A DNA stretch of 64,000 bases from Candidatus Eiseniibacteriota bacterium (GTDB lineage: Bacteria; Eisenbacteria; RBG-16-71-46). The notes under the pieces were generated by a model, which saw only the letters and a program-made list of their open reading frames with translations, made no database searches and was not told the origin of the DNA. Positions 29,941 to 60,059 of this stretch are shown in pieces. The stretch is taken from the NCBI GenBank assembly GCA_036522895.1, contig DATDEX010000279.1, positions 69,793 through 133,792 on the forward strand. The letters run 5' to 3'. The stretch's first letter is position 1. Every line of letters starts with the position of its first letter. The translations under genes and the position numbers were made by a program.

Positions 29941-30378
29941 CTATGGGGACAGGTCGCGAGGCGTCACCCCGAGCTGCCGCGCCCGCCGACGCTGCCGACC
30001 CCGTTCCGCCTGCGTGAGTGGCTTGTGGGTCATGTACAGCTGCACGCGGACCTTTTCACGTTCGGCGGCGTCCATGGCCGGCAGGACGGTGCACTCCAGC
30101 TCACGGAGCCCGAGGTCCCGGGCGATCCGGTAACGTCGCTCGCCGTCGATGATCAGGTAGCGCCCCTTGCCGGACGGGCAGACGAGCAGCCCGTTCATGA
30201 CCGCGAACTCCTGGATGGACGCTCGGAGGTCCGAGTCATCCTCGGCGATGCTGTACTTGCTGTGCACGCTGTCTGGGTCTGGCACGATCTGACTGATCAG
30301 GATGCGCTTGTAAGTGTGACGATGCTTCATACACTCACGATAGCAAATGAGCGCAGTTCGTCTAGGGCGGTTGTCCAC
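29941..30378 (-). CDS. ParB/Srx-like nuclease-domain protein
   Basis: YLIIDGERRYRIARDLGLRELECTVL (ParB N-domain GxRRxxA box). Confidence 0.6.
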   Translation of the reverse strand: MDNRPRRTALICYRECMKHRHTYKRILISQIVPDPDSVHSKYSIAEDDSDLRASIQEFAVMNGLLVCPSGKGRYLIIDGERRYRIARDLGLRELECTVLPAMDAAEREKVRVQLYMTHKPLTQAERGRQRRRARQLGVTPRDLSP

Positions 30379-30502
30379 AACGATGCGGCATCACATTCGC
30401 GTCCGCCTTCCTACCGGGAAGGACATCGGGGCGCTACGCTTCCCCACGCAGTACACCTGATGCCGCAACCGTTCCACCCGCCCCTTGTCAGGAGGCCTTC
30501 CC

Positions 30503-31201
30503 ATGAAGGCCGATCACCCCATCCCGTACACCGACACCCGCGAGTCCATCGCCTACGCCGAGCTCTTGAAGCTCGCCCACGAGGAGGGCCTCAAGTCCAT
30601 CAGCACCTCGCTCGTGCTTCAACCCAGCGAGGAGAACGGCCGACTCGCCATCGTCAAGGCCGCGGTCGAGACGGAGCGCGGCCACTTCGAAGGCCTCGGC
30701 GATGCCGACCCCGGCAACGTCGATGCCTTCCTCGTTCCGCACCTGATCCGCGTGGCCGAGACCCGGGCCAAGGCCCGCGCCCTCCGTGACGCCGTCAACT
30801 GCGGCGTCGTCTCCTCCGAGGAGTTGGACGACGTCAGCCTGGACCAGGCCTCACGCCCCGGACCGGGTGCTCCCGCACCCCCGTCCTCGCGCCCTGCGAG
30901 GAATGAAGCGCCGCCTGCGCGCCCGCGCGGCAATGGCGGGGCCCGGTCCCCTCGGGGCACCACCGGCAACGGCTCGCCCGAGCCGATGACCGAAGGCCAG
31001 CGCCGGTACCTGTTCCGCATAATGGCGGGGCAGGGCTACCAGCGCGAAGCCGCGGAGAATCGGCTCAAGGAGATCTTCGAGGTCGGCTCGCTCACGGAGA
31101 TCACGAAGACCGCCGCGATGAAGATGATCGACGAGCTGCTCCAGACCTCCGCCCCCGGAAACGGTGGCGGGAATGGACCAGCCTCGCGTCCTCTCCATTA
31201 G
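30503..31201 (+). CDS. Hypothetical two-domain protein. Possible single-strand annealing/DNA-binding partner of the adjacent exonuclease (inference from gene order only).
   Basis: RBS GGAGG before ATG 30503. Structured N-domain, Pro/Gly-rich linker, then conserved C-terminal TEGQRRYLFRIMAGQGY...MIDELL. Confidence 0.5.
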   Translation: MKADHPIPYTDTRESIAYAELLKLAHEEGLKSISTSLVLQPSEENGRLAIVKAAVETERGHFEGLGDADPGNVDAFLVPHLIRVAETRAKARALRDAVNCGVVSSEELDDVSLDQASRPGPGAPAPPSSRPARNEAPPARPRGNGGARSPRGTTGNGSPEPMTEGQRRYLFRIMAGQGYQREAAENRLKEIFEVGSLTEITKTAAMKMIDELLQTSAPGNGGGNGPASRPLH

Positions 31202-32006
31202 CCAGGTCAACGCCTACCTCGGCTGCCCGCTCAAGTACCGCTTCCAGTACGTGGACAAGATCCCACGGCCGTGGCGGGTAGCGGCCATGGCCTTCGGGAC
31301 ATCAGTCCACGCCGCCGTCGAGTGGTTCCACAAGGAACGCCTCGCCGGCCGAAGCCCGGAACTGACGCAAGTCCTCGAGGTCTTCGACGCGGACTGGTAC
31401 GCGCAGAACACGGAGCCGCTCGTCTTTTCGGAACGGGAGTCGAGAGACTCCCTGGCCGAGAAGGGCCGGGCGATGCTCCAGCTCTACGTCGAGTCCAGCA
31501 GCGGCGTGAAGCCGGTCGCGGTCGAACAGCCGTTCGAACTGGATCTCGCCGATCCCGAGACGGGGGAAGTTCTCGGCGTGCGGCTGCGCGGCATCATCGA
31601 TCTCGTGGAGGAGGGGGAGACGCTGGTCGACTTAAAGACGGCCGGCCGGACGCTCGAATCGGGGGGTCTCGAGCGGCACCTGCAGCTGTCGACCTACGCC
31701 CTCGCCTTCTTCCTCCTCCACGGTTCCATCCCCAAGCTCCGGCTGGACATGCTGCTCAAGACCGCCAAACCGCGGCTGGAGCGGCATCCCACCACCCGGA
31801 GCCTCGAGGATCTCGGCTGGACGGCCCGCCTCATCCGTGAGGTCTCACTGGCCATTCAGACCGAGCACTTCTTCCCAAACCCGAGCTGGCGCTGCACCGA
31901 GTGCGAGTACTTCGCCCACTGCCAACAGTGGCGCGGGACCTGGCCCAGCGAGCAGCTCATGCAGCTAGGTGACGGGGGAGGTGTCGGCGAGTCCGTGGGC
32001 GCGTAG
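31164..32006 (+). CDS. PD-(D/E)xK nuclease of the Cas4/RecB (phage-type exonuclease) family with a 1+3 Cys cluster
   Basis: N-terminal CPLKYRF. GIIDLVEEGETLVDLKT (D-E-K). QLSTYALA (QxxxY). C-terminal CTECEYFAHC. Confidence 0.75.
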   Translation: MAGMDQPRVLSISQVNAYLGCPLKYRFQYVDKIPRPWRVAAMAFGTSVHAAVEWFHKERLAGRSPELTQVLEVFDADWYAQNTEPLVFSERESRDSLAEKGRAMLQLYVESSSGVKPVAVEQPFELDLADPETGEVLGVRLRGIIDLVEEGETLVDLKTAGRTLESGGLERHLQLSTYALAFFLLHGSIPKLRLDMLLKTAKPRLERHPTTRSLEDLGWTARLIREVSLAIQTEHFFPNPSWRCTECEYFAHCQQWRGTWPSEQLMQLGDGGGVGESVGA

Positions 32007-32186
32007 GACCGATCAGCGGTCGATCGCGTGCTATCGGGGGCCACGGACGGCTGTTGAAGCCGAAACGTCCACGGCTCGTCGCACCTTCTCCCGTCAGTTG
32101 TTCCATCGCTCATTCCATTCAACGGGGCTCCACGCGTTCGCGCCTGGGGCCCTCTTTTCTACCCCAGCCCCTGCAGAGAGGCACCT

Positions 32187-32609
32187 GTGTATGTCTGCGA
32201 ACTGACGAAGCGGAAGTACCGCGGCAAGCAGCCGCGCCAGATCCGCGGACCGGACGATGTGTGTGCCGTGATTGGGCGGAAGCTCCATAGGGAACAACGC
32301 GAGCACTTTCTCGTCCTGCTCCTGAATGCCCGCCACGAGGTTATGGCCAAGGAGACCATCTCCATTGGCAGCTTGAACGCGTCGGTGGTTCATCCGCGCG
32401 AGGTGTTCAAACCCGCCATCCTCGCCTCGGCGGCCTCGATCGTGCTGGTTCACAACCACCCGTCCGGCGACCCCGAGCCAAGCGACGAGGATCTCTCAAT
32501 CACCAAGCGCCTCGTCGAGGCCGGTGAGCTGCTCGGCATCGGCGTGCTCGACCATGTCCTCATCGCCAGCCGGGGCGTCGTCTCGTTCCGCGCACGGCAG
32601 CTACTGTGA
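32187..32609 (+). CDS. RadC-like JAB/MPN domain protein
   Basis: HNHPSGDPEPSDEDLSITKRL (JAMM motif). Confidence 0.85.
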   Translation: MYVCELTKRKYRGKQPRQIRGPDDVCAVIGRKLHREQREHFLVLLLNARHEVMAKETISIGSLNASVVHPREVFKPAILASAASIVLVHNHPSGDPEPSDEDLSITKRLVEAGELLGIGVLDHVLIASRGVVSFRARQLL

Positions 32610-32636
32610 CCCCTCACTGAAGAAAGGAATGTTGTC

Positions 32637-33368
32637 ATGCCTGCAACACTTGTTGTCCACCGCGGCGGCTGGGATGCCACCAAGGCTGACCTCGCCAGCG
32701 TCCTCGTGCCCGAGTCCACCGAGTCGTACCACCCCGTCCCGTACCATCGCTTCATCGAGGAGGTTGAGCTGCACATCCCGCGCTTCGGACTCGCCGTTCG
32801 CTCGTCGCAGTTCGCGCTCGCGCGGGAGGGAGGCCAGATGTTCGGCGTCCTCACCTGCTCGAACGGTACGCCCGATCGCGACTACGCCCTCGCCATCGGC
32901 GTGCGGAACAGCTACGACCGCAGCCTGGCCGTCGGACTGACGCTCGGCTCGCGGGTGTTCTGCTGTGACAACCTCGCCTTCTCGGGCGAGGTGACGATGC
33001 ACCGGAAGCACACGCTGAACGTCTTCCGCGATCTGCCCGACTTGATCTACCGGATGCTGTCGCAGGTGGCGGCCATGCGGCAGCGCAGCGACGGCGAAAT
33101 CGCGGCGATGAAGGTTCGCGAGCTGCCGCCGGCTCATGCACATCACCTGATGGTCGAGGCGATCAAGGCGAACGTTGCGCCCGCCTCGCGTCTGCCGAAG
33201 GTGATCGAGGCGTGGGATGAGCCGAAGCACGAGGAGTTCGCGCCGCGCACGGCCTGGTCCCTCTTCAATGCCTTCACCGAGATCCAGAAGGCGGGGGCGC
33301 CTCGGGCACAGATGGAGGGGAGCCTTCGGCTCAGTTCGCTCTTTCGGAAGGAGTTGTCACTCTACTGA
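32637..33368 (+). CDS. DUF932-like (phage/plasmid-related) protein
   Basis: Overall similarity to the TIGR03299/DUF932 pattern, judged by eye. Low certainty. Confidence 0.45.
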   Translation: MPATLVVHRGGWDATKADLASVLVPESTESYHPVPYHRFIEEVELHIPRFGLAVRSSQFALAREGGQMFGVLTCSNGTPDRDYALAIGVRNSYDRSLAVGLTLGSRVFCCDNLAFSGEVTMHRKHTLNVFRDLPDLIYRMLSQVAAMRQRSDGEIAAMKVRELPPAHAHHLMVEAIKANVAPASRLPKVIEAWDEPKHEEFAPRTAWSLFNAFTEIQKAGAPRAQMEGSLRLSSLFRKELSLY

Positions 33369-33677
33369 TTCAATCTCCGGGGCCGTCCGATTCTCGACGG
33401 CCCCGTCTTCATGTCGACGCGTGCAAGAGAAGACGGAGAAGCGGGGGTGGGGCGGCGCCCTTGCTCATGACCGTACGTTGCAGTACTTCACCGCGAGTGC
33501 CACATCGACGAACGTTTCCATTCGGATTCGCTCGCCGTCTGCGGGGCTCTGATTCAGTCGCGCGACCTCCGTGCCTGCAGGAGCGAGCGCCCCGACCCGT
33601 GGTCGCGTGGCACCCCGCACGGGCCGGTGCGTCGCAAGTCGTTGAACCAGCGGGAAGAAGCAGCTATCTTCGGCCCC

Positions 33678-34868
33678 ATGAAACCCATCAACCAGCGGAC
33701 TACTTCGGGCGAGCGACTACGAATCGCGGGGCTCTTCGCGGGGATTGGTGGCATTGAGCTCGGGCTGCACCGAGCCGGCCACGTGACCGCCCTCTTGTGC
33801 GAGTCGGATCCCGGTGCTTCCAAGGTCTTGGCCGATCGATTCTCGCTTGAGGTGGCACCAGACGTGCGCGACCTTGAGTCGCTCGGCGATGTCGACTTGG
33901 TCACCGCTGGGTTCCCCTGCCAGGACCTCAGCCAAGCGGGTATGACCGCTGGCATTCGGGGGAGCAACTCCGGTCTCGTCGATCACGTCTTCCGGCTCCT
34001 CGACCAGCGGAAGCGCGGTCCACGCTGGCTGCTCCTGGAAAACGTCTCGTTCATGCTCCACCTCGATCGTGGCCGCGGCATGCGCCACCTCGTCGACGAA
34101 CTCGAGAAGCGCCGTTTTCGCTGGGCGTACCGCGTAGTGGACACGCGGGCCTTCGGGTTGCCGCAGCGGCGCCACCGAGTCATCCTGCTCGCATCCCGCA
34201 GCGAGGACCCGCGCGGGATCCTGTTCGGCCAGGATTCAAGAGTAACAGAACCCACATTCTCCACGGAGCTCTGGTGTGGATTCTACTGGACGGAGGGACT
34301 TCGCGGACTCGGGTGGGCAGTCGACTCGGTGCCCACGCTCAAGGGCGGTTCGACGATTGGCATTCCATCCCCGCCAGCGATCTGGGATCCCGAGAGCGGT
34401 GAGATCTCCACCCCCGAGATCCGGGATGCCGAGCGGCTGCAGGGATTCGAGGCCGACTGGACGCTCCCGGCTCTTCAAGTTCCCGGTGTCCGACCAGGAC
34501 ACCGGTGGAAGCTGGTCGGGAACGCGGTGAGCGTGCCCGTGGCGAAGTGGGTGGGGGAGCGTTTGGCCTACCCAGAGCCGTTCGATGGCGCTCGCACCCT
34601 CGAGGAACTGTCGCCGGGCGTGGCGTGGCCCAAGGCCGCGTGGGGCGCGAAGGGGCGTGTCTTCTCGGTCTCGGTCTCCACCTGGCCCGTGCGCATCCGC
34701 ACCCCGCATCTGTCTCGGTTCGTGCGGTTCCCGCTGGCGCCACTGTCGTACCGAGCGGCATCGGGCTTCAAGAGTCGAATGGACGTGAGCGGACTCAACT
34801 TTGAAGACGCCTTCCGTCGCGCGATCGCGCGATACGTGAAGCGCGGCCTTCGGGTGGCCGTCGCCTAA
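33678..34868 (+). CDS. DNA (cytosine-5)-methyltransferase 1
   Basis: Motif I LFAGIGG, IV PCQDLS, VI ENV, VIII QRRHRVIL, X GNAV. Confidence 0.9.
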   Translation: MKPINQRTTSGERLRIAGLFAGIGGIELGLHRAGHVTALLCESDPGASKVLADRFSLEVAPDVRDLESLGDVDLVTAGFPCQDLSQAGMTAGIRGSNSGLVDHVFRLLDQRKRGPRWLLLENVSFMLHLDRGRGMRHLVDELEKRRFRWAYRVVDTRAFGLPQRRHRVILLASRSEDPRGILFGQDSRVTEPTFSTELWCGFYWTEGLRGLGWAVDSVPTLKGGSTIGIPSPPAIWDPESGEISTPEIRDAERLQGFEADWTLPALQVPGVRPGHRWKLVGNAVSVPVAKWVGERLAYPEPFDGARTLEELSPGVAWPKAAWGAKGRVFSVSVSTWPVRIRTPHLSRFVRFPLAPLSYRAASGFKSRMDVSGLNFEDAFRRAIARYVKRGLRVAVA

Positions 34869-35662
34869 TGGTCGAACCTCCCCCCAAGCCCATCCGTACC
34901 CTTGCCGATGTCTTGCGCGAATCGGAGCCGAGACCTCTTCCCGGCCCGGAGAGAGTGCGCGGCGAGAAAAACACGTACTCGACTCGCTTTGCTAACAACA
35001 TGGCTCGGCTGGTTGCCTTCGGACTGCGTGAGCAGTTCGGGGACTTCTTCCGCGGTATCCTGCCGCACGACGAGGGGGGCCTGGAGTCGACGGCGTGGGG
35101 CTCGAGGGGCACCGGCAGGCTCGACGTCAACTATTCGACGCCTGAACTGGGGCTCGGACTCGGGATCTCACTGAAGTCGGTTCACATCCCGGAGGAGAAA
35201 TCGGGACGCGCTCGGCGATACACGCACAACATGAAGCGCAACGACGAGGAGCTACGGGTCGAGTCGATCAGCTACCACACCCGGCAACCGTACGCGGTCA
35301 TGGTCGCGGTGCTCTTCCTGCCGTACGACTCCTGCACCGACGGGACGGACATCTCCTCGTTCGGCGCCTGGGCCGAGTACCTCCACGAGCTGGTCGGACG
35401 CACGGATCCAGGAGACGACGCGGCACTCTTTGAACGTGGATTCATCGGTCTCTACGATCCCGATCCAACCACGAACCGAATGGAGTTCTTCGACATCGAG
35501 CAGCCGCCTCCACGCAAGGGCCGGCCGCAGCGCTTACTTCCCTTCTCGGGATTCCTGAGCGAGGTCAAGAAGACGTACGACCGCCGGAACCACAAGGACT
35601 TCAAATGGGCAGACGATGTCCCGCTTGACGAGGTCCCACCCCCATACGGCGAGCCGACCTGA
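34868..35662 (+). CDS. Putative Type II restriction endonuclease partnering methyltransferase 1 (by position)
   Basis: Start overlaps the methyltransferase stop (taATGg). Loose PD-(D/E)xK pattern GRLDV...PELGLGLGISLKS. It lies between a C5-methyltransferase and Vsr. Confidence 0.45.
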   Translation: MVEPPPKPIRTLADVLRESEPRPLPGPERVRGEKNTYSTRFANNMARLVAFGLREQFGDFFRGILPHDEGGLESTAWGSRGTGRLDVNYSTPELGLGLGISLKSVHIPEEKSGRARRYTHNMKRNDEELRVESISYHTRQPYAVMVAVLFLPYDSCTDGTDISSFGAWAEYLHELVGRTDPGDDAALFERGFIGLYDPDPTTNRMEFFDIEQPPPRKGRPQRLLPFSGFLSEVKKTYDRRNHKDFKWADDVPLDEVPPPYGEPT

Positions 35663-35690
35663 AGCCTCCTCGTTGTCGGTTCGTCGGCGG

Positions 35691-36074
35691 ATGCAGGCCA
35701 CCCCCAGACGCGACACACAGTGCGAACTCGCGCTGCGCTCAGTGCTCCATCGGCTCGGCCTACGCTTTCGTGTTGATCGCAGGTTGCCTGATGCGCGGCG
35801 AAGAGCCGACCTGACTTTCGTCCGCGCCAGAGTGGTCGTGTTCGTCGACGGTTGCTTCTGGCACGGCTGCCCTCAACACGCATCATGGCCAAAGTCGAAT
35901 GCGGAGTGGTGGCGCGCCAAGATTGAGATGAACCGCCGGCGGGACATCGAGACGAGCCGCAAACTTCGACGGGCGGGTTGGAAGGTCGTTCGAGTGTGGG
36001 AACACGAAGACCCGCACCGGGCATCGCAACGGGTGGTCGCGGCCATTGGGGAGACAAGCTCGCCAAGACGCTAA
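35691..36074 (+). CDS. vsr: Very short patch repair endonuclease (Vsr)
   Basis: VVFVDGCFWHGCP plus the downstream W/H pattern typical of Vsr. Confidence 0.85.
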   Translation: MQATPRRDTQCELALRSVLHRLGLRFRVDRRLPDARRRADLTFVRARVVVFVDGCFWHGCPQHASWPKSNAEWWRAKIEMNRRRDIETSRKLRRAGWKVVRVWEHEDPHRASQRVVAAIGETSSPRR

Positions 36075-36288
36075 GGGCGATCTCACCAACAACGGAAGGC
36101 CGCCCGTGAGACCTGAGCTGGTCATAGCGTGCGTTGGCGAAGCGGTCCTCTCGGTGGAGGCTTCGATGCGCCTGGCCACGGGCAGAGGTAGGTACTTGGC
36201 GGGAGTGGCAGATGTCGCGCTCGCGGGAAGAGCTTACACTTGGCGGACGACCTGCCTCCAAGACAACTCGAATGGAAGGAGGAGTGCT

Positions 36289-36542
36289 CAGTGAATGGGA
36301 CCGACTATCAGATCGCACTGCTGCTGGCGACACTGTGCCTACGGCTTTCCTCGCTGGCCGCGGGACTGTTTCTGGTTCGGGGCGGCGTTCGCGTTCTGAT
36401 GCTCGATTCGACCGGACACGGCCTCGGATCGCGAGAGTGGCTATCCAGGTGCTGGCTTGGAGCGATGCTCGGTCTTGCACTAGTCGTCGGAGGCGCGATC
36501 CTAGTCTTCGGCAAAGGGTTGGGAGCTCTGGTTCACAGCTAA
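36289..36542 (+). CDS. Possible small 2-TM membrane protein
   Basis: Hydrophobic ORF (36240..36542 frame), preferred over the Arg-rich overlapping frame. GTG start guessed. Confidence 0.3.
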
Positions 36543-36577
36543 ACCCGCCCACCAAGGGCGCCAGCGTAGGGGGGGAC

Positions 36578-37333
36578 GTGCAGTTAACCGGCAGAGAATC
36601 TGTGGTTCGCGGGTTCATCGACGGATTGATTCCGCCCAGGTTGCGGCCGGGCAGCTTTGATCTCACGGTCGGTAGGATCGTCGTTCGGGGCGAGGAGCGA
36701 CACGACCCAGTCGTGATTCAACCGCAACAGACATTTCTCATCGAATCGGAACAGACCGTGACGGTCCCGATTGGGTACGTGGGGTACGCAATGCCGAAGA
36801 CGAGCCTTTGCAACGATGGGATCCTCGTCCTCAACACAGGGCTCGTCGACCCAGGCTACAACGGCAAGCTCTCGACGATCGCCATCAACTTCTCCGACAG
36901 CGACCAACGGATCCGGCGGGATACTGCGTTTCTGCGGCTGGTCTTTCACCAGCTTACGGGAGCCGATGCAGATCGCGAAGACGCACATACGCAAACCGCG
37001 ACCTTGGACGACCTCAAGTCCCGATCACGACATATCAGTGCGTCCTTCCTCGATGTGCCGGGCCAGGCCGACCGCATCATGCGTGAGCTGACCAACGATG
37101 TCATGGACAGACAACGCAACGCGATCTTGCTCCTCATCAGCACAATTGGCTTCCTATTTGTAATGTGGAACTTGGGGTCGTTCTTCCTCCTATCTCGACA
37201 GACCAACGCGATCGCAGATCGCACTGCGCAAACCGGGTCGCGGGAGCTCGGGGCACTTGAGGAGCGGGTGAAACAGCTCGATGAACGCGTGGCGAGGCTA
37301 CAAACCCTTGTCACACCGCCAAAAGCGCGATAG
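36578..37333 (+). CDS. dCTP deaminase/dUTPase-fold protein with a C-terminal TM helix and coiled coil
   Basis: LTGRESVVRGFIDGLIPPRLRP...DLTVG aligns with the Dcd N-terminus. GLVDPGYNGKLSTIAINFSD matches the Dcd/dUTPase motif (HRIDPGWSG / IDSDYRGE). TM segment AILLLISTIGFLFVMWNLGSFFLL, then heptad-rich tail. GTG start at 36578; the upstream ORF part is junk. Confidence 0.7.
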   Translation: MQLTGRESVVRGFIDGLIPPRLRPGSFDLTVGRIVVRGEERHDPVVIQPQQTFLIESEQTVTVPIGYVGYAMPKTSLCNDGILVLNTGLVDPGYNGKLSTIAINFSDSDQRIRRDTAFLRLVFHQLTGADADREDAHTQTATLDDLKSRSRHISASFLDVPGQADRIMRELTNDVMDRQRNAILLLISTIGFLFVMWNLGSFFLLSRQTNAIADRTAQTGSRELGALEERVKQLDERVARLQTLVTPPKAR

Positions 37334-37348
37334 CATCAAAGGATTCTT

Positions 37349-38251
37349 ATGATTCGATTGACCGTTTCTTCCGCCGACGAAGTCCTAGCGTGGCTCTCAC
37401 ATGAGCTCGTCCACCACGGGCGTGAAGTCCAGCCCCGGGGACGCCGCACCTTGGAGATAGCGCCTTGCGCGTTCACGCTCTCGAACCCCCGGGCACGCAA
37501 GATTGCCAACACACACCGACGTTGGAACGAGGCGCTGGCCGTCGGTGAACTGGCATGGCATCTGGCCGGCTCGGACGATCTCGATGCCATCGCGTATTAC
37601 GCGAAGGCGTGGCGCGGCTTCTCGGACGACGGCCGCACCATCCATGGAAGCTGCTATGGCCGCAAGATCTTCGGCGGCGGGGCGGGTGCTAGTCAGTGGG
37701 ACCGCGTCCGCGCTGAACTTCAGCACGATCCTGATTCGAGACGGGCACTGCTCGCAATTGCAGATCCGCATCATGACCTGAGCGCTTCGAGCAAGGATGT
37801 GCCGTGCCTGACGGCGTTGCAGTTTTTGATTCGTGACGGAGCGCTACATGCCGTCGCCTTCATGCGCAGTAATGACCTCATCTGGGGGCTTTGCTACGAC
37901 CTCTACCTGCTCACCATGCTTCAAGAACTGATGGCCTGCGAGCTCGGCGTGGGACTAGGCCAGTACACGCACGTCGCCACCTCGATGCATGTCTATGAGC
38001 AGCACTTGGAGATGGTGAGGCGAATCGCCGACTCGAACCCGCCTAGGATTGCTCCGCCAATGGAGCCTCTCGGCCAGCCCAAGCAGAAGGAGGAGTTCAT
38101 CCGGCTCGAGCGTGTCTTGAGGGAGGGTGGCAATGCGACGACCGAAGGGTTGGATCCTTTCTGGAAGGGGCTTGCGAAGCCGCTACTCCGACTGGCCGAA
38201 AGACGTCGCGCGCGGCTGCACCCGACGCCGACGCACGAGATAACCGTCTGA
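37349..38251 (+). CDS. Thymidylate synthase / dCMP (dUMP) hydroxymethylase family protein
   Basis: ELAWHLAG, GSCYG, DPDSRRALL, DVPCLTALQF...MRSNDLIWGLCYDLYLL, THVATSMHVYEQH all align to ThyA conserved blocks including the catalytic Cys. Confidence 0.8.
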   Translation: MIRLTVSSADEVLAWLSHELVHHGREVQPRGRRTLEIAPCAFTLSNPRARKIANTHRRWNEALAVGELAWHLAGSDDLDAIAYYAKAWRGFSDDGRTIHGSCYGRKIFGGGAGASQWDRVRAELQHDPDSRRALLAIADPHHDLSASSKDVPCLTALQFLIRDGALHAVAFMRSNDLIWGLCYDLYLLTMLQELMACELGVGLGQYTHVATSMHVYEQHLEMVRRIADSNPPRIAPPMEPLGQPKQKEEFIRLERVLREGGNATTEGLDPFWKGLAKPLLRLAERRRARLHPTPTHEITV

Positions 38252-38273: not shown

Positions 38274-38717
38274 TTGCAGCACGCGCACGGGCGGCGCCAT
38301 CTGAGGTGGGACACGTCCTTGAGTGACATCAGCGTTGAAGCCTTAGGGCAGCTACGGTTGGCGGCATGGCGCGCAAGAGACCACGCGCGCACCTACAGCG
38401 GTATCAAGGTCGGTGCGGCTGTCTTGACCGCGGCGGGCGAGGTATTCGCCGGGTGCAATCTCGAGCATCGTTTCCGGGCCCATGATATTCACGCCGAGAC
38501 GAACGCAATCGGCTCCTTCGTCGCGGGCAGCGTGTCGACCGTCGTCGCGGTGTTGGTGGCATCAGAGGAAGCGCTCTTTACGCCGTGTGGCGGGTGCATG
38601 GATTGGATCTTCGAGCATGGTGGAGCGGATTGCGTGGTCTACGTCATGAGCTCCCGGGATACGGCGCCGATGACGTGGCGCGCCTCCGAGCTCATGCCGC
38701 ATTACCCGCATCAGTAA
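38274..38717 (+). CDS. Cytidine/deoxycytidylate deaminase (CDA-fold) protein
   Basis: HAETNAI (H-A-E) and TPCGGCMDW (PC-x-x-C) zinc-ligand motifs. Upstream of the HAE block: ...SGIKVGAAVL, as seen upstream of the H-A-E zinc motif in CDA-fold enzymes. Confidence 0.75.
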   Translation: MQHAHGRRHLRWDTSLSDISVEALGQLRLAAWRARDHARTYSGIKVGAAVLTAAGEVFAGCNLEHRFRAHDIHAETNAIGSFVAGSVSTVVAVLVASEEALFTPCGGCMDWIFEHGGADCVVYVMSSRDTAPMTWRASELMPHYPHQ

Positions 38718-38759: not shown

Positions 38760-38937
38760 GGGTAATGGGCGCCTCGACCACCTCGGGTACCTGAGCATGG
38801 GCTCGACGTCTATCTACGCCCGCATGACGGGCCAACACCGGGTTGCGGTGTTCCGCGAGCTCGCCCGCTCGCCGTGGATCGTCCAGCCCGGAACGGGATT
38901 CTCCGCAGTTCGACAACTTGAACGGAAGTCGCCATGA
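38760..38937 (+). pseudogene. 3'-terminal fragment (~50 codons) of a tyrosine recombinase gene. About 85% nucleotide identity to the 3' end of the intact gene at 44883..45725.
   Basis: Encodes ...GSTSIYARMTGQHRVAVFRELARSPWIVQPG, versus intact ...RSTSIYARITDRHRVAVFRELARSPWIVQPG. Both copies end ...gtcgccATGaa. Confidence 0.65.
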
Positions 38938-38977
38938 ACGCACGCCGTCTGCCGCTCATGATCCGGAGCTTGGCACC

Positions 38978-40177
38978 ATGGTCCGTTTGAAGATCGCTGA
39001 ACTCTTTGCGGGTATTGGTGGTGTCGCGGGCGGGCTCCTGGACGCCGGCGGCTTCGATCCCGTGCTGCTTATCGATCGTGAGCCGCTGGCAGCGAAGGTC
39101 TTCAATGCCAACTTCCCGACCTACGCGCCCCGCTACCACACGCGATCTGTCAGCGCCCGACTCACCGGGAGGGAGCTGCTGGAGCAGGCCGGGGGCGAGA
39201 TCGACGGCATTCTCGGCTGCCCGCCATGTCAAGGATACAGCGCCGCCGGCCTTCGTGACCCGGACGACGCGCGCAATCAGCTCCTGGACGAGATGCGGCG
39301 ACTCATCGCCTCGATCGAGCCGCTCTTCTTCCTCATCGAGAATGTCCCCAGCCTCAGGAGTTCCCATCAGTTTGAACGGTTCGGCCAGTCGCTCGAATCG
39401 AAGTACGAGATTGCGGCGCAAGTCCTCAACGCGGCCGAGTTCGGCATCCCACAACTTCGGCGCAGGCTCGTGGTGTTGGGCGTCCACCGGTGCGCGAAAG
39501 TATCGCCGTCCTTTCCGACGCCGACGCACGGCGGCAAGGGACGCGTCTTCGACTACTGCAGTGGCAGGTATCTCCGACCCAGCTCACCTGCCGGTCGTCA
39601 GGCGTTTCAAGTCGATCCCGGACTTCATTTCGCACGCCGCAAGATGGTGACGCTCTCAGCAGCCCTTGACGACTTGCCTGCCAACCCACCCCTTCATCTT
39701 GGTCGAGGCCTGTCTGGCGACGCTCCACTCGAGTACGCAGGACCGGCGCGGACCACCTTCCAGCGCCGAATGCGGCGAGAATCTCGCCGGCCGACGCACC
39801 ATGTTGCCTGGCGACATCGATCGACCCTCGTCAAGCGTCTGGCGCGGATCGCTCCCGGCGACTGCCCACCAGGCACGGGCGGTAGGTCGCGCAACGCGGA
39901 GTACTTCAGCCAGGCCTACGCTCGGCTTCACCCAGCCGGTCTGGCCCGCACCGTAACGACGAACTTTCACAATCCAGGATCCGGCCGCTTCACTCACTAT
40001 GCGGTGCCGCGCGCCTTGACGCTGCGAGAGGCGATGCGGCTTCAAAGCTTCCCGGACAGCTTCGTCCTGCCGGAAATGCACCTGAGTGAAGCTGAGCGGC
40101 TTATCGGCAACGCCTTCCCCCGGCGCTTAGCTGAAGTCCTTGGTCGACACATCGCGCGGCTGCTCAGCGGGAGGTAG
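38978..40177 (+). CDS. DNA (cytosine-5)-methyltransferase 2
   Basis: LFAGIGG, PPCQGYS, ENV, QLRRRLVV motifs. Confidence 0.9.
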   Translation: MVRLKIAELFAGIGGVAGGLLDAGGFDPVLLIDREPLAAKVFNANFPTYAPRYHTRSVSARLTGRELLEQAGGEIDGILGCPPCQGYSAAGLRDPDDARNQLLDEMRRLIASIEPLFFLIENVPSLRSSHQFERFGQSLESKYEIAAQVLNAAEFGIPQLRRRLVVLGVHRCAKVSPSFPTPTHGGKGRVFDYCSGRYLRPSSPAGRQAFQVDPGLHFARRKMVTLSAALDDLPANPPLHLGRGLSGDAPLEYAGPARTTFQRRMRRESRRPTHHVAWRHRSTLVKRLARIAPGDCPPGTGGRSRNAEYFSQAYARLHPAGLARTVTTNFHNPGSGRFTHYAVPRALTLREAMRLQSFPDSFVLPEMHLSEAERLIGNAFPRRLAEVLGRHIARLLSGR

Positions 40178-42391
40178 TGTCGTCGGCTCCGGCCCGGCAT
40201 CGCCCAGCGCTTCCCCGCGCCGAACGGTCAGTTTGGCCATTCGCTCAAGCTGCTTCCTGAGCCTCTGAAGAGACACGTACTCTATCGTTGTGCGTGGAAC
40301 TGCCATGCCCCGCAGCCCCTTCATGGCACTCAGGTTCGCGGCGATGGCTTGCTGCAATTCCGAAATAAGCTTGTGACCGAGCACCTTGCACTTCTCGTGT
40401 GCCTCGTAGATCACGAAGGGTATGAGTCGCGGCAGCCGGCGCCGGCTCATGATGTTGTGGTCTTGATCAAGGGCCCATTTGGATGAGTGGACCCCACGAA
40501 CGATCAGGTCGGCGACGTGCATCACCCGTGCGGATCGTTGTTCGGCGCCTCGCGTGCGTATCGAGTCGAGAAACTCGAACCGTGGGAACCGAATCTGTGG
40601 GCTGCCGCCGGGACGCCCCAGGTAGAACATGCCAAAGTCCGCGTACTCGCACATGCGCACGTACTCGTCCTCGGCAATGTCCCGACCGTCGAACCACGGC
40701 CGCTCGCCGGAGCCCGAGTGGTTGTAGCGCTTCACCTGTTCCGCCAGCTGCTCTTCGAAGAAGCGTCGCCAATCGCCAGGCTCTCGGACGCGGTGGACCC
40801 GGAAGAGGCTCGTCACCATCGCGGTGAAGGGCCGGACGATCACGCAGGTGGAGTAGTACTGCGCCCGGTCAGGCACCGGGGACAGCGAGCACAAGAGCCG
40901 AGTCATCGCGACCGAGTCGCTGATCAGACCCATCCGTTCGAGTTCCCAGTGCGGATCGATCGCCTGACCGAAACGCAGCTCCGATCCCCGCTGGATGTAC
41001 CAGTTGAGAATCCGCGAAAATGTTCGCAGCTGCGTCGATTTCACCGCACCCGCGAACACACGGCGGTCAGAGTCCATCACGTGGCGCAGGATCTTGTAGC
41101 TCAGCCGGATCCCTTCGCGGACCATTTCTCCATAGGATGTCCGATTCGTGTAATTCTGCAGCTCGCGGCTCTGCGGAGACACGGCTCCGTCGCGCAGCAG
41201 CACGTGCGGCTTGGGCAACGCATCGCCGCCTTGTACCGCGTGGGCACCATAGGGCTGCGCCATGCCCGAGAGCAGCGCCTCATCGATCCGGTACTGGACG
41301 ACATCGAGCGCCGTTTTCCTCAGGTGTTCGAACTCCCCGTCGTCGAGGTCCTGGAACCACGGTCGCGAAATGATCATGCCCTTGTTGCCTGGATCCTCCA
41401 GCGCTGCGCGCGTGATCGGAATACCGTGATAGGGCGACGGAAACTTTCCGGGAAAGCTGGGAGGAAGGTCGACATATCCGGCACCGTTATTGAACCACAG
41501 AACCAAACGATCGTCGTCGGCGTAGGCCGCGGCAGGCATGCCTCGCACTTCACCTGGGTGGCTCGATCCGTCGGTACCCGCGATGATCAGTTGTGGCTGG
41601 CGGTCGGGTTCCGGCGTTACCGTCAGGGAGTGTAGGAATGTCGGCCCAAACACGTGGCCTGCGAGCTCGGCCGCCACGGCAGTCCAATCGTCAGCGCCCA
41701 CGTGTCGTTCCACGTCGCGATGGTCGACCGGTACCGGCTTCGCCTCGATCTCCGGAAGATCGGGGATCCTCCAGACCGCCGGGTTGATCCCCAGTTCACC
41801 GTGCACAAAGCGCGCAAAGTCCTGGAGCTGACGTTCCACCTTCTGCCGGTGGGCCTCATCGTTGCCGATGCTCGCGTCGCGCACATCGGCAACGTCCTCA
41901 TCGAGACGATGCGCTATGTCCTTCAGCATGCGAAGGATCAGTTCGCGCGGCTCCTCCTGCAGCAGGCCCTCGGCCGCCTGGCGCATGACGGCCGCCGAGC
42001 GACCCTCGAACTGTTCAACGGTATCGACGTAATAGGCCAGCGCCGTGGTTGGTCCGAGCTCCCACAAGGCCTGATTGAGATCAGGCTGGGAGAGCGGCGT
42101 CAGCGGCGACACGCGTGGCGCCACGGTGTACCGGGCGGCGGCACCGTCGGTTGACCCGTCAGACAGCAGGAAGCCGCGGGCTACCAACTTGGCCACAGTC
42201 CGGTGGTAGGTCGGGAGCGTCGCGGTATCGCCTATACCTCGAGGCTGGACCACTCCCGACTCGTCCTCAACGTGCGCCGAGTCCTTGGCGTGCTCCCAGA
42301 TGTCACGGATGGTCCGCTTGTCCTCCGGCGCATCCTGCAGGTAGCGGACGATCCAAGCGTCGCGTTCGTAAATGCTGATCTGCGTACTCAC
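40127..42391 (-). CDS. Large protein with NurA-like nuclease domain (C-terminal ~480 aa) and an N-terminal extension
   Basis: LIIAGTDGSSHPG matches the NurA motif I (hhAhDGS). The 3' end overlaps methyltransferase 2 convergently. It is adjacent and co-directional with the HerA-like ATPase. Confidence 0.5.
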   Translation of the reverse strand: MSTQISIYERDAWIVRYLQDAPEDKRTIRDIWEHAKDSAHVEDESGVVQPRGIGDTATLPTYHRTVAKLVARGFLLSDGSTDGAAARYTVAPRVSPLTPLSQPDLNQALWELGPTTALAYYVDTVEQFEGRSAAVMRQAAEGLLQEEPRELILRMLKDIAHRLDEDVADVRDASIGNDEAHRQKVERQLQDFARFVHGELGINPAVWRIPDLPEIEAKPVPVDHRDVERHVGADDWTAVAAELAGHVFGPTFLHSLTVTPEPDRQPQLIIAGTDGSSHPGEVRGMPAAAYADDDRLVLWFNNGAGYVDLPPSFPGKFPSPYHGIPITRAALEDPGNKGMIISRPWFQDLDDGEFEHLRKTALDVVQYRIDEALLSGMAQPYGAHAVQGGDALPKPHVLLRDGAVSPQSRELQNYTNRTSYGEMVREGIRLSYKILRHVMDSDRRVFAGAVKSTQLRTFSRILNWYIQRGSELRFGQAIDPHWELERMGLISDSVAMTRLLCSLSPVPDRAQYYSTCVIVRPFTAMVTSLFRVHRVREPGDWRRFFEEQLAEQVKRYNHSGSGERPWFDGRDIAEDEYVRMCEYADFGMFYLGRPGGSPQIRFPRFEFLDSIRTRGAEQRSARVMHVADLIVRGVHSSKWALDQDHNIMSRRRLPRLIPFVIYEAHEKCKVLGHKLISELQQAIAANLSAMKGLRGMAVPRTTIEYVSLQRLRKQLERMAKLTVRRGEALGDAGPEPTTLPPAEQPRDVSTKDFS

Positions 42392-44061
42392 GAACGTGGC
42401 TGCCCATCGCGCGTGCTGGTCGGAATCTCGCGTCGAGCGGTCCAGCCTCGTTTGGCCAAGTCCGCGAAAATGTCAGGCGTCGCGCCGCCGACCGGCGTTC
42501 GCCGCCGACGGATGTCGACCAGGGTGGCGTGCTTGACCGTCTCGGACACGCCGCTCAGCACGCACGTGCCGATCGGCGCCCTGGTCAGCCGATGAATCAT
42601 CGCCTCCGGGGCATCCGAAAACACGCCGCGCAGGGATTCGAGCTGATCAGGCTCGATGGCGAAGATGAACCGCGTAAGCAGACGCTTCAGCAGCGGCCGA
42701 TCGAGGTCGGCGGGGCTCTGACTGGTGAGGATGAGGCCGATCCGGTAGTGGCGCCCGATGCGCGCGATCTCGCGCAGGACCTGTGTGGTGACCACCTTGT
42801 CATCGTTGGGGGCGATGAGGTGTGCCTCGTCCATCGACAAGACCACGAAGGGAATCTTTCGGGCGCGCGCCAGTCGCTGGATATCGCGCGCCACGGCCGC
42901 GGCGATAAGCCGCAAGTCCGACACCGAGAGGCCACGGCAGTCGATGTTGATAATTCTGCCGGGCGTGAGCTCCTGCTCCCAATCGAAGGGTGCGCCGATG
43001 TACGGGATGTTTTCCAGGCTGCGCGCTCGGAGCATCGCCGGGCGGAAAGTTTGTGCTTTCATCTCGAGCGCCGGGGCCAGCTCTTCGATCTTGGCGATCA
43101 GCGCGTCGACGCCGAACTCTTTGCCACCGCGCAGCACCTGATTGAGCAGCGACTCGTGGGCGAACTGAACCAGTGTTTCGATATTCGTGCCCTTGTTGAT
43201 GGCGGGGATCGAATCGATGATTTCGTCCGGCTGGAGAGCGCTAAGCGGCAGGCTGAAGCCGTCGCCTGGCCGAACATTGGTGCCACCGAGGCTCGTGGTC
43301 GCATCAACCATCTCACCCAAGGGGTCGATGTTGATCTGCGGGACGCCATGACTCCAGAGCTCCTCGGCCACGACGCCGCGGCCATATGACTTGCCGCGTC
43401 CGATTCCACCGCAGAAGAAGATGTGCGTTTGCACCACATCGCGGCGCAATCGCACGGTCACGTCGGGCAATCCATGAATCGTTCCCACTTCAAGGCCGCT
43501 CTGCGAGTCGGGCGCAAAATTGAGCGCCTGCGCGATCAGCCCCGGCTGCACGACCACCACGGGACTGCCCGAGAGGGGGAGGGTCTCGACAGACTCGATT
43601 CGGTCGAGGCTTCCGTCCAATTTGAAGACCACTTCCTCGAGCGGATCGGCCGAGGCGGCGCGATAGATGACGGTCGACTGGCCCTCTGGCGCGTACCTGG
43701 TCTCAAACGGGATCACGTCGCTCACCGTCGAGCTCAGTGCGTCCTCATGCGGGTTCTGCTCCCACACGCCTTCGACCCGAATGAGCGTGAGGACGCTCGG
43801 GCCATTAATCTGCTTTCCCCGGACTCCCAACACCCGGCCGGCGGTCGTGTCTTGCCCGGGAAGAAGCCGGAACAGCACCTTGTCCAGGCTCGGAGACTCG
43901 CGCTCGCAGATGACCCGGCCGATCACGACGTCATTCTGATCCGCCTCGGTCCCGACGAGAGGCGGCTGATCGAACTCGGCTTCCTCCTGCCCCCTTGCGC
44001 TCATGGTGCCATCCTTCATAGCATCTCCTTCGATTCGGTGCGCGGGTCCTTCGGTGAACAT
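42388..44061 (-). CDS. HerA/FtsK-superfamily ATPase (HAS-barrel + RecA-like core)
   Basis: Walker A GGIGRGKS. Walker B VVLSMDEAH. LILTSQSP (TQxP). N-terminal HAS-barrel-like VVIGRVICERESP...RVLGVRGK. Start placed at MFTEGP; the listed 44157 start adds an Arg/Pro-rich N-terminus. Confidence 0.7.
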   Translation of the reverse strand: MFTEGPAHRIEGDAMKDGTMSARGQEEAEFDQPPLVGTEADQNDVVIGRVICERESPSLDKVLFRLLPGQDTTAGRVLGVRGKQINGPSVLTLIRVEGVWEQNPHEDALSSTVSDVIPFETRYAPEGQSTVIYRAASADPLEEVVFKLDGSLDRIESVETLPLSGSPVVVVQPGLIAQALNFAPDSQSGLEVGTIHGLPDVTVRLRRDVVQTHIFFCGGIGRGKSYGRGVVAEELWSHGVPQINIDPLGEMVDATTSLGGTNVRPGDGFSLPLSALQPDEIIDSIPAINKGTNIETLVQFAHESLLNQVLRGGKEFGVDALIAKIEELAPALEMKAQTFRPAMLRARSLENIPYIGAPFDWEQELTPGRIINIDCRGLSVSDLRLIAAAVARDIQRLARARKIPFVVLSMDEAHLIAPNDDKVVTTQVLREIARIGRHYRIGLILTSQSPADLDRPLLKRLLTRFIFAIEPDQLESLRGVFSDAPEAMIHRLTRAPIGTCVLSGVSETVKHATLVDIRRRRTPVGGATPDIFADLAKRGWTARREIPTSTRDGQPRS

Positions 44062-44361
44062 GACTTGCTGTGGGGGAGGAGCCGGCGCGGGTACGCCGGC
44101 TCCGACCCCCGTTCCCCCCGGTCGGGAGCTAGGCCGCCTGACGGCGGACCTGCGCACCCGGAGCCTGCTTCTTCACGAGATCGATGCTGTGGTCACAGTC
44201 CGCCTCGTTGACGTAGCCGTCCGTGGAGCGACAGATCTCCCGGCCGTTGGGGGACATGAACCGCCAGTACCACTGGCGGTCCCGACCCGGAAACTTCTCG
44301 AAGTAGTACATCCGCGCGATCACCTCCTTCCGTTGAGGGATCCGGAGCCGCTGACAGCAAC

Positions 44362-44850
44362 GTGTTATTCATTTCGCGGTTCCGAGAAACACGAAATGAT
44401 TACCGCTGCCGTGCGTCGGCTACAAGTCAGGTATTTGTGAATTCGCGCGACAACCTCACTCCCGAGCAGCGGGTACGGGCGATGCGGGCGGTGCGGTCGA
44501 CGTCCTCGGCCGAGGCCACCGTCCGGGACGCGCTCCGGGCTCTAAAGGTGCGGATTGGTAGAGGGCTCACCTTGCCGGGCCGTCCGGACTTTGTTCTCCC
44601 CGACCAACGGATCGCCCTCTTCGTCAACGGCTGCTTTTGGCACGCCCACGGATGTCGGCCGCTGTACCCGGTCGCGAACCGTTCCTACTGGAAGCAGAAG
44701 CTCGCGTCGAATGTCCGGCGCGACCGTCGAGTTCGCCGCCAACTGAATAGGGCAGGGTGGAGCGTCGTCGTCTTGTGGGAGTGCAAGCTCTCGAAGCAGG
44801 ACCCCGCCGCCTCCGTCCTGCGGGTGATGAAGAGAGCTCGAAGGTATTGA
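44362..44850 (+). CDS. Vsr-family endonuclease paralogue with Asn in place of the catalytic Asp
   Basis: IALFVNGCFWHAHGC read directly from cgtcaacggctgcttttggcac. Otherwise Vsr-like. Confidence 0.75.
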   Translation: MLFISRFRETRNDYRCRASATSQVFVNSRDNLTPEQRVRAMRAVRSTSSAEATVRDALRALKVRIGRGLTLPGRPDFVLPDQRIALFVNGCFWHAHGCRPLYPVANRSYWKQKLASNVRRDRRVRRQLNRAGWSVVVLWECKLSKQDPAASVLRVMKRARRY

Positions 44851-59969: not shown

Positions 59970-60059
59970 GGAGAGGTGCGAGAGTGGTTGAATCGGGCGG
60001 TCTCGAAAACCGTTATACCCGTAAGGGTATCGAGGGTTCGAATCCCTCCCTCTCCGCCA
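59970..60059 (+). tRNA. tRNA-Ser (anticodon CGA), class II with long variable arm
   Basis: Manually folded: acceptor GGAGAGG/CCTCTCC. Anticodon stem GCGGT/ACCGT with loop CTCGAAA. Variable stem ATACCC/GGGTAT. T-arm GAGGG-TTCGAAT-CCCTC. Discriminator G, then CCA. Confidence 0.85.

Follow-up and report, generated by a model that had tools for sequence, protein, structure and literature searches.

What would a predicted nucleotide-processing enzyme do in a membrane? The question is raised by a gene at positions 36578-37333 (forward strand) of a 64,000-nucleotide (nt) stretch of contig DATDEX010000279.1 from a Candidatus Eiseniibacteriota bacterium (positions 69,793 to 133,792 of the contig; this whole stretch is called the window). 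An initial annotation of the bare sequence had described a dCTP-deaminase-fold domain fused to a transmembrane (TM) helix and a heptad-like tail. We find that the gene encodes a membrane-anchored protein of the Dcd/dUTPase fold and opens a tight operon, in which it is followed by genes for a 5-hydroxymethyl-dCMP (5hm-dCMP)-synthase-like enzyme and then a cytidine-deaminase-like enzyme. We favor, with a probability of about 45%, the reading that the whole chain is a cellular analogue of the T4 enzymes gp56, gp42 and Cd, which would drain dCTP and be used in conflict with phages or mobile elements. A defence role of the operon as such is held tentatively, at slightly less than even odds.

An intact gene with a conserved four-part architecture

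The open reading frame (ORF) is intact and runs for 251 codons from a GTG start to a TAG stop. Its product consists of four parts: a beta core with the Dcd/dUTPase fold, a linker in which one Phe is invariant, a single TM helix and a tail of heptads. We regard this architecture as practically certain. The motif GLVDPGYNGKL (residues 88-98) and the hydrophobic run AILLLISTIGFLFVMWNLGSFFLL (residues 182-205) lie where the initial annotation had placed them, as does the ORF itself.

The longest in-frame ORF opens further 5′, at a TTG at 36134. Translation from the GTG at 36578 gives M-Q-L-T-G; most of the aligned homologues likewise start with MQL, and the rest with MG or MA. A run of G at 36569-36575 precedes this GTG, and the in-frame extension 5′ of it overlaps a small ORF that is conserved separately in another frame (Table 1). 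Because of the shared N-termini, the preceding G-run and this overlap, we take the GTG to be the real start, in agreement with the start codon proposed earlier.

A frameshift, a misassembly or chance hydrophobic read-through could in principle have joined a soluble Dcd gene to unrelated sequence. The chance of such an artefact is negligible. The identical ORF occurs on seven independent contigs from several samples, and the same architecture was matched end to end in 78 of 78 homologues and in 293 clusters. It is also present in finished Bradyrhizobium genomes and on the Sinorhizobium meliloti plasmid pSymA. The search for homologues with the same fusion, which the initial annotation had called for, yielded at least 78 aligned members that share it, and the fusion is a real architecture.

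The core has the Dcd/dUTPase fold but lacks the catalytic Glu of dCTP deaminases

The fold named in the initial annotation was recovered by Pfam, a structure model, Foldseek and profile alignment. Residues 42-126 matched the Pfam family DCD (PF22769; E=5.6e-11, 43.2 bits against a cut-off of 27), and a match to dUTPase (PF00692) was found at E=6.7e-7. The NCBIfam models stayed far below their cut-offs, with 45.6 bits against 92.8 for the dCTP_deam equivalog TIGR02274, and 36.8 and 36.0 bits against 102.6 and 103 for the dut models TIGR00576 and NF001862. An AlphaFold2 (AF2) model of the monomer, with 18 homologues in the alignment, had a mean predicted local distance difference test score (pLDDT) of 78.6, and the beta core (residues 1-125) scored 86-91. 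When this model was compared with the PDB by Foldseek, the top matches were the Pyrococcus dUTPase 'P45' (9ln0), the Thermococcus pacificus dUTPase (8y1w) and DCD-DUT/Dcd structures including 4xjc (E about 1e-10, TM-score on the target 0.6-0.77), with a probability of 1.0 to the Dcd/DCD-DUT structures. The profile of the 78-member family aligned with the two archaeal Dcd-type dUTPases along the full length of the core (positions 1-137), with E=1e-21 (8y1w) and 3e-21.

Motifs 1-4 of trimeric dUTPases were all found in the window protein, among them the Asp of motif 3 and the aromatic residue that selects for deoxyribose: S-F/Y-D28-L (motif 1), P-K74-T75-S-L (motif 2), G88-L-V-D91-P-G-Y94-N-G96 (motif 3) and F118-L-R120 (motif 4). 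K/R74, D91, Y/W/F94, N104 and R120 are conserved in all 78 homologues, G88 in 77, T75 in 75, G96 in 72 and D28 in 71. These residues suggest that the core binds a pyrimidine deoxynucleoside triphosphate (dNTP), which it would most likely hydrolyse to the monophosphate. That the predicted enzyme core acts as a dNTP pyrophosphatase is, judged from its sequence, somewhat more probable than the contrary. A nucleotide-processing role, as proposed earlier, is backed both by the conserved nucleotide-binding and catalytic motifs and by a near-obligate linkage to nucleotide-modifying enzymes, which is described below.

The deaminase chemistry implied by the initial annotation did not hold up. In an alignment to 4xjc, the catalytic Glu of Dcd (E138 in E. 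coli; within …GQITLELFN… in the B. halodurans DCD-DUT) falls on Ile101 of the window protein. The same column in the 78 homologues contains T (39), I (10), V (9), M (6), S (4), A (4), N (2), F (2), Y (1) and K (1), and neither Glu nor Asp in any of them; archaeal dUTPases have Met at this position. A function as dCTP deaminase was rejected on the basis of this non-acidic column, and the protein is very likely not a deaminase.

Motif 5, the Gly-rich, P-loop-like C-terminal arm with a conserved Phe, was not found after the core, where the linker, the TM helix and the tail stand instead. This motif is needed for full activity of canonical trimeric dUTPases. The linker contains F157 in 78 of 78 homologues, L158 in 68 and D/N159 in 72, and the conservation of this F157-L-(D/N) motif is compatible with a lid that may replace motif 5.

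The adjacent gene encodes a predicted 5-hydroxymethyl-dCMP synthase

The gene directly downstream encodes an enzyme of the thymidylate synthase (TS) family. Its best match among solved structures was the CMP 5-hydroxymethylase MilA (5b6d, E=1.8e-47), compared with about 1e-13 for ThyA and 3.6e-12 for T4 gp42. To read its specificity, we mapped the rules from Zhao et al. 2016 (PMC5175136) and from a 2026 Nucleic Acids Research (NAR) study of viral TS homologues (PMC13326640) onto its signature residues E67, R131, D150, C153, R173, S174, D176, D184, H214 and Y216. C153 is the Cys nucleophile of catalysis. D184, at the position of ThyA N177, indicates cytosine rather than uracil as the base, and D150, at the position of ThyA L143, where T4 gp42-type enzymes have Asp or Glu, would admit water and so lead to a hydroxymethyl rather than a methyl product. 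S174 and R131 stand at the positions of MilA A176 and K133 (Ser167/Arg126′) and point to deoxyribose rather than ribose. D176 corresponds to a retained ThyA D169, which is not the 5-hydroxy-dCMP type. The predicted partner enzyme carries the sequence signature of a T4 gp42-type 5hm-dCMP synthase, and the same signature is present in every full-length partner at related loci and invariant in the partner alignment.

Other activities within the TS family were considered. A ribo-CMP hydroxymethylase for nucleoside antibiotics was ruled out by the Ser/Arg signature and the absence of MilB, and a 5-hydroxy-dCMP synthase by the retained D169. A dCMP methylase is unlikely in view of the Asp at the L143 position.

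In about 24 of the 28 contexts that could be assessed, the Dcd-like gene is followed after 1-115 nt by a TS homologue. These contexts cover 29-100% identity of the Dcd-like protein, and the two proteins diverge roughly in step. Functional coupling of the anchored protein to the predicted 5hm-dCMP synthase is highly likely. The sequences provide strong evidence for a functional pair, of which the second step would be the conversion of dCMP to 5hm-dCMP.

A single TM helix is constant, and most members add a heptad tail

The 19-residue Kyte-Doolittle hydropathy (KD-19) of the window protein reaches its maximum of 2.07 at residues 182-200. At the equivalent site, the KD-19 value was at least 1.81 (median 2.41) in 78 of 78 homologues despite diverged residues, and the same was seen in 18 of 18 close homologues. 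The TM segment noted earlier is accordingly kept in position across the family, and the view of a membrane-tethered protein is upheld by this single conserved helix.

The 15 residues before the helix contain on average 3.08 Lys and Arg, compared with 2.22 in the 15 residues after it; the N-side count was higher in 50 proteins and the C-side count in 11. Because of this excess on the N-side flank and because there is no signal peptide, an N-in/C-out topology is favored, in which the core is probably cytoplasmic and the tail extracytoplasmic. Several homologue tails end in stretches rich in Pro, Ala, Ser and Thr, which would fit an outside location.

The heptad-like character assigned to the tail was confirmed, but its length of about 60 residues had been overstated: the tail of the window protein has 46 residues and about three perfect heptads. 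Between L224 and V245, hydrophobic residues occupy every a and d position and occur nowhere else (score 1.0, z=4.7; the score was reached by 0 of 100 shuffles), and 68 of the 78 homologue tails had a heptad z above 2. The AF2 model shows a single unbroken helix from residue 160 to 245. A trimeric coiled coil beneath a trimeric dUTPase-fold head would be geometrically attractive. Two more distant members, from Shimia (locus L017) and Planctomycetales (locus L018), end shortly after the helix and have almost no tail. Because these two stop so soon, we regard the anchor as constant and the coiled coil as a frequent addition.

What sets the family apart throughout is its TM helix and tail, and this also favors a different view, in which the protein is the sensor-effector of an abortive-infection response and its core a nucleotide sensor instead of a bulk enzyme: binding of a nucleotide, perhaps 5hm-dCMP made by the partner from dCMP freed by phage nucleases, would cause the TM/coiled-coil part to perturb the membrane. 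Many defence effectors, including those of CBASS (cyclic-oligonucleotide-based antiphage signalling), Pycsar and type III CRISPR systems, are nucleotide-binding domains fused to TM helices, which counts for this view, as does the loss of motif 5, which efficient catalysis requires. Signalling by the dUTPase fold is also documented, as in staphylococcal phage dUTPases (title of PDB 3zf0). However, D91, K74, T75 and R120 are as invariant as they are in enzymes, a single TM helix in each chain would form pores poorly, and the L017 and L018 members have almost no tail. We consider a sensor-effector quite unlikely.

The family is widespread in metagenomes and rare in genomes

An initial word-indexed search found 18 relatives. 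An exhaustive profile search of 1.84 billion cluster representatives (clusters defined at 50% identity) returned 293 with E<=1e-30 and 1225 with E<=1e-10, and the top profile matches extended end to end over 240-300 residues. The proteins form an unnamed family of at least 293 clusters that is widespread in metagenomes. Members occur, among others, in two genomes of Bradyrhizobium and one of Shimia, in a metagenome-assembled genome of Planctomycetales, on S. meliloti pSymA, on a plasmid of Agrobacterium rubi with a divergent copy, on a single TARA ocean contig and in many metagenomes from soil. The patterns used gave 4 matches among 185,579 species representatives. The Bradyrhizobium members are named 'dCTP deaminase domain-containing protein' or 'hypothetical protein' by NCBI.

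No full-length homologue was found in 50,697 phage genomes, where only dUTPase-domain matches with at most 42% coverage occurred, nor among the viral structures of BFVD (TM-score on the query at most 0.46). One member is on an IMG/VR contig (L019). This contig notwithstanding, a phage origin was rejected. Full-text literature searches returned no description of a membrane-anchored Dcd/dUTPase-fold protein or of its pairing with a TS homologue. The protein architecture is undescribed, and the module built around it would be of an already known kind, that of nucleotide-pool and base-modification conflict modules.

Genomic setting of the gene and its relatives

About half of the long contexts are restriction-modification (RM) or defence islands or mobile elements, and the others are housekeeping neighbourhoods. 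For the infection gating that the initial annotation had raised as a possibility, the island contexts are indirect evidence. In a Bradyrhizobium genome (L015), MzaC/D/E lie directly upstream of the pair and an integrase downstream. The pair adjoins a DruE fragment and Vsr in L016, and Dcm, a DEAD helicase and IS21 in L010. Near the pair in L004 are Dcm/Vsr, a CBASS E2 gene, a helix-turn-helix plus M78 peptidase gene and transposases. Vsr and Dcm adjoin the family gene in L027 and L040, and a CapP-like regulator precedes the pair in L032. PADLOC gave no match for the Dcd-like (E<=0.01), TS-like or cytidine deaminase (CDA)-like protein of the window, and a known defence system was ruled out on this basis.

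In about 7 of 18 long contexts, Dcm and/or Vsr lie no more than a few kb away, which is far above what a random locus would show, by a general estimate of the background rather than a computed control. This association fits a housekeeping role in pyrimidine metabolism linked to cytosine-5 methylation, either sanitation of 5-methyl-dCTP or of dUTP set free when Dcm-methylated DNA is turned over, or another path leading from dC to dU/dT nucleotides. The adjacent deaminases would convert 5-methyl-dCMP to dTMP, and in about 7 of 19 long contexts the neighbours are plain housekeeping genes (RecO/AlaRS, isocitrate dehydrogenase, peptidase M16, NAGLU). Several observations speak against such a role: sanitation calls neither for a 5hm-dCMP-synthase signature nor for a membrane anchor, the family is patchily distributed and rare in genomes, and its members are often flanked by integrases or transposases. 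A housekeeping function is therefore improbable.

In the window, the region around the gene has ~62% G+C. Genes for ParB_N, PD-(D/E)XK, RadC and DUF932 proteins and a short tyrosine-integrase gene lie at 29941-33368 and 45096-45725. The G+C fraction rises from about 0.62 to 0.70 near 60 kb, beside tRNA-Ser genes (tRNA-Ser at 59970-60059). The ParB_N, PD-(D/E)XK, RadC and DUF932 set is typical of the leading regions of integrative and conjugative elements (ICEs) or plasmids. Taken together, these features point to an integrated element that takes up most of the window.

Immediately upstream of the operon, at 33627-36074 (+), are a C5 methylase (PADLOC MTase_II PDLC03324, E=7e-139), a 264-residue protein and Vsr (TIGR00632, E=6e-34), and this trio is 74-90% identical in the related locus L001. 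The 264-residue protein, which has no family match and lies between methylase and Vsr, is probably the cognate restriction enzyme. Downstream, a block at 38843-44850 contains a second C5 methylase, a 754-residue protein (40127-42391, −) with no match in Pfam, NCBIfam, PADLOC or PHROGs, a HerA-like DUF87 ATPase (42388-44157, −; PADLOC HerA and mad8, E=7e-12), DUF1508 and a second Vsr. This block is absent from the otherwise syntenic L001, which indicates a modular island structure, and it resembles a methylation-linked defence module, as yet uncharacterised, that was inserted independently. Further upstream, 25399-29454 (+) encodes a 1351-residue secreted-type protein with CARDB, fn3, DUF7379 and alpha/beta-hydrolase domains; its homologue in L001 flanks the other side of the island.

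Deaminases, kinases and a small upstream ORF accompany the pair

The features of the operon are listed in Table 1.

Table 1. Coordinates, strand and supporting evidence for the operon and the parts of the anchored protein (positions in the window)
Feature	Coordinates	Strand	Evidence
Whole gene, membrane-anchored Dcd/dUTPase-fold protein (251 residues)	36578..37333	+	ORF and translation; MQLTG N-terminus common to homologues; identical protein on 7 contigs
Dcd/dUTPase-fold beta-barrel core, residues 1-126	36578..36955	+	Pfam, AF2, Foldseek, profile against PDB, column statistics
Linker, residues 127-181 (short helix and F157-L158-(D/N) motif)	36956..37120	+	Residue conservation; AF2 pLDDT 62-78
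Single TM helix AILLLISTIGFLFVMWNLGSFFLL, residues 182-205	37121..37192	+	KD-19 maximum, conserved position, K+R flank count
C-terminal tail, residues 206-251 (heptad segment L224-V245 at 37247-37312)	37193..37330	+	Heptad score, AF2 helix
Partner, TS-family enzyme (300 residues)	37349..38251	+	Starts 15 nt after the stop of the anchored-protein gene; Pfam Thymidylat_synt 1.3e-23
Third gene, cytidine-deaminase-like zinc deaminase (H-A-E ... P-C-G-G-C)	38274..38717	+	Pfam dCMP_cyt_deam_1 1.1e-11; JGI start 38319
Small upstream ORF (100 residues, two hydrophobic segments)	36240..36542	+	40% identical to an 87-residue ORF at the same position in L001

The third gene matched NCBIfam cyt_deam_tetra (4e-18, below the cut-off) and, among PDB structures, the CDA 1zab (4e-11). 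A 75% identical orthologue occupies the same position in L001, where the Dcd-like protein is 71% identical to that of the window. Unrelated dCMP-deaminase-like genes adjoin family members in L006, L027 (S. meliloti) and L017 (Shimia), so that the adjacent cytosine deaminases belong to three different subfamilies (window and L001; L006; L027 and L017). Such deaminases often take the third position, as they do in the window. In L027 and L017, the deaminase lies beside the anchored gene without a TS homologue. The small upstream ORF had no family match and was not seen in the more distant contexts, so that only in this lineage may it open the operon. A promoter and terminator scan of the operon gave counts that did not differ from those of shuffles.

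On S. meliloti KH46 pSymA (L027, 6461-11810), the dCMP-deaminase-like gene is divergent from the Dcd-like gene, and Vsr, a C5 methylase and a 264-residue protein come next; the PLSDB table is without annotation throughout this region.

Kinases were also found beside some members. A homologue of the 5-hydroxymethyldeoxyuridine (5-hmdU) DNA kinase (HMUDK_hel, E=8e-107) directly follows the TS gene in L051 (3793-4788) and L054 (2582-3397). Its position after a cytosine-type hydroxymethylase gene may hint at a kinase acting on 5-hydroxymethylcytosine in DNA or on 5hm-dCMP. In L032 (4666-6270) and in L028 (A. rubi pW2_73_2, 8834-10447), the Dcd-like gene has beside it a fusion of a P-loop kinase (AAA_18) and an adenylosuccinate-synthetase-like domain. 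These two fusions, on two unrelated replicons, are 47% identical to each other, and their arrangement resembles the PurZ logic of phage Z-genomes. In L032, the kinase fusion, the CapP-like regulator, DUF7002, the Dcd-like gene and the TS homologue form an apparent five-gene operon. Because the neighbours vary among these enzymes, the anchored Dcd-like protein appears as the constant element, and its partners all alter pyrimidine or at least nucleotide chemistry.

Both kinds of kinase bear on the possibility that the operon serves DNA (hyper)modification. In that case dCTP would be removed and 5hm-dCMP converted to 5hm-dCTP by host or unlinked kinases, for incorporation into the DNA of the element or of the host as protection from restriction or as a mark. 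The enzyme logic matches T4 gp56 and gp42, the partner carries the fitting signature, the window copy is situated among ICE/plasmid leading-region-type genes and orphan-like C5 methylases, and one member is on the IMG/VR contig. On the other hand, most contexts have no deoxynucleoside monophosphate (dNMP) kinase, glycosyltransferase or dedicated polymerase beside the pair, several copies are in stable housekeeping neighbourhoods, and full-length homologues are missing from the phage genomes and BFVD. The C5 methylases would also be odd beside a pathway that blocks C5. On balance, DNA modification is unlikely.

Proposed mechanism

In the favored reading of a dCTP drain, the cytoplasmic core would be a trimeric dNTP pyrophosphatase that converts dCTP, and possibly also dUTP, to the dNMP and pyrophosphate. 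It would thereby feed dCMP to the hydroxymethylase, and the deaminase would remove dC or dCMP by a separate route. Assembly, localisation or gating of the enzyme would fall to the TM helix and to the trimeric coiled coil, which is probably extracytoplasmic. With no dNMP kinase dedicated to it, 5hm-dCMP would be a dead end, and the operon would irreversibly drain dCTP into 5hm-dCMP and dU species. Because no dNMP kinase accompanies most copies of the pair, such a drain is the simplest consequence. In the 2026 NAR study, cognate kinases were co-expressed to obtain incorporation (PMC13326640). The drain would serve in conflicts with phages or other mobile DNA by depleting nucleotides and/or by supplying a modified nucleotide; this use is the most likely one because many copies lie in RM/defence islands or on mobile elements and because nucleotide-depletion immunity has precedent.

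A number of points weigh against this reading. Motif 5 is missing from the predicted pyrophosphatase, and its replacement by F157-L-D/N is only conjecture. Base specificity, dCTP or dUTP, is not readable from the sequence. Four contexts (L017, L027, L028 and L039) have no TS partner, and the kinase in L051 and L054 points to modification at the level of DNA and not to a dead-end sink. The share of plain housekeeping neighbourhoods and the lack of a PADLOC model for either protein of the pair also count against it. A constitutive dCTP drain would be toxic, yet no regulator is conserved, and the reading leaves the reason for the membrane anchor unexplained.

In a more far-reaching version, the anchored protein would be a trimeric dNTPase and the entry enzyme of a host-encoded, T4-like pathway from dC to 5hm-dC nucleotides, and its extracytoplasmic coiled coil would sense perturbation of the envelope, such as phage adsorption or genome injection, and switch on the diversion of dCTP. 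The phage would then be starved of dCTP or fed a base that is acted on by downstream restriction or methylation-linked systems (Mza, Druantia, RM+Vsr). We regard this extension as speculative and distinctly unlikely; if true, it would represent a previously unrecognised class of nucleotide-based immunity.

The favored reading, if true, would add a third chemical route to depletion of the dC pool, beside zinc deaminases and dGTPase-type enzymes, and would give a first role to a membrane-bound dUTPase-fold protein. It would also offer, in Bradyrhizobium and Sinorhizobium, which can be cultivated, a tractable system of two or three genes in which to study how nucleotide-pool immunity is switched on. 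Even if the role is DNA modification or metabolism, the pairing corrects the automatic labels 'dCTP deaminase', 'dUTPase' and 'thymidylate synthase'.

Comparison with known systems

The closest proteins in both sequence and fold are the archaeal Dcd-type dUTPases (9ln0/9ln3, 8y1w), with TM-scores on the target of 0.72-0.77 and the motif vDPGw/y-G in common. They are pyrophosphatases and not deaminases (PDB titles) and, like the window family, are non-acidic at the Glu site. In contrast to the window family, they are soluble proteins of about 155 residues with the usual C-terminal arm, are only 24-26% identical to it, and have neither the F-L-D linker motif nor the TM helix and coiled coil; no TS-homologue partner is known for them. 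Dcd and DCD-DUT enzymes (E. coli 1xs1, M. tuberculosis 2qlp, B. halodurans 4xjc) share the fold, PF22769 and the dNTP-binding motifs, but are soluble and have the catalytic Glu that is absent in all 78 homologues of the window protein.

Among the MilA/BcmA CMP 5-hydroxymethylases of nucleoside-antibiotic pathways, MilA is the best solved-structure match of the partner. Lys133 and Ala176 give MilA its preference for ribo-CMP, and the double mutant that prefers dCMP has Arg and Ser (PMC5175136). The window's partner has Arg/Ser, as do T4 gp42 and this double mutant, and no MilB-type glycosidase is nearby.

Nucleotide-depletion defence systems (defensive dCTP deaminase, AvcD/DcdV, dGTPase) share the proposed outcome, loss of dCTP, and the location in defence islands. 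The defensive dCTP deaminases are fusions of a P-loop kinase and a zinc deaminase of the CDA/APOBEC-like type (supplement of PMC13092281). They differ from the window protein in fold, and none of the nucleotide-depletion enzymes is membrane-anchored or paired with a TS homologue. With its different fold and no PADLOC match, the window protein does not belong to the defensive dCTP deaminase/AvcD type.

DS-4 ('NTTI') is a validated E. coli anti-phage operon that encodes a TS homologue, a dNMP kinase, a 5-hmdU DNA kinase, TIR and Nmad2 (DefensePredictor, Science 2026, PMC13092281). The same study lists a dUTPase domain among predicted, unvalidated defence domains, with MazG-C and aGPT-Pplase as system partners. 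Of the DS-4 set, the window operon has the TS homologue alone; the 5-hmdU DNA kinase domain recurs after the TS gene at the related loci L051 and L054. The DS-4 TS is 25% identical to the window's partner and has Asn at the base-specificity position, which predicts a uracil-type enzyme. The dNMP kinase, TIR and Nmad2 of DS-4 are absent from the window operon, and DS-4 has no Dcd-like TM protein. Judged by these sequences, DS-4 is a different, uracil-based system. The family nevertheless links to such newly validated, mechanistically unexplained defence operons of phage-like base-modification enzymes.

The same predicted logic, namely removal of dCTP, hydroxymethylation of dCMP and deamination of dCMP, is found in gp56, gp42 and Cd of phage T4. 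gp56 is a dCTPase/dUTPase and Cd a dCMP deaminase, and T4 requires its own dNMP kinase to take 5hm-dCMP to the triphosphate. T4 gp42 is a true homologue of the window's partner with the same specificity signature. Homology to gp56 was ruled out: gp56 has the unrelated, all-alpha dUTPase_2 fold (PF08761), and hhalign against the family alignment gave a probability of 0.1%. Because of this difference in fold and the lack of profile similarity, the first step would be analogous to that of T4 and not homologous. T4 also adds a dNMP kinase and glucosyltransferases, places hydroxymethylcytosine in its DNA and has no membrane anchor, and the window family is cellular and not phage-borne. If the proposed mechanism is true, the opening steps of the T-even hydroxymethylcytosine pathway have been domesticated by bacteria, with a different, membrane-tethered fold taking over the dCTPase step.

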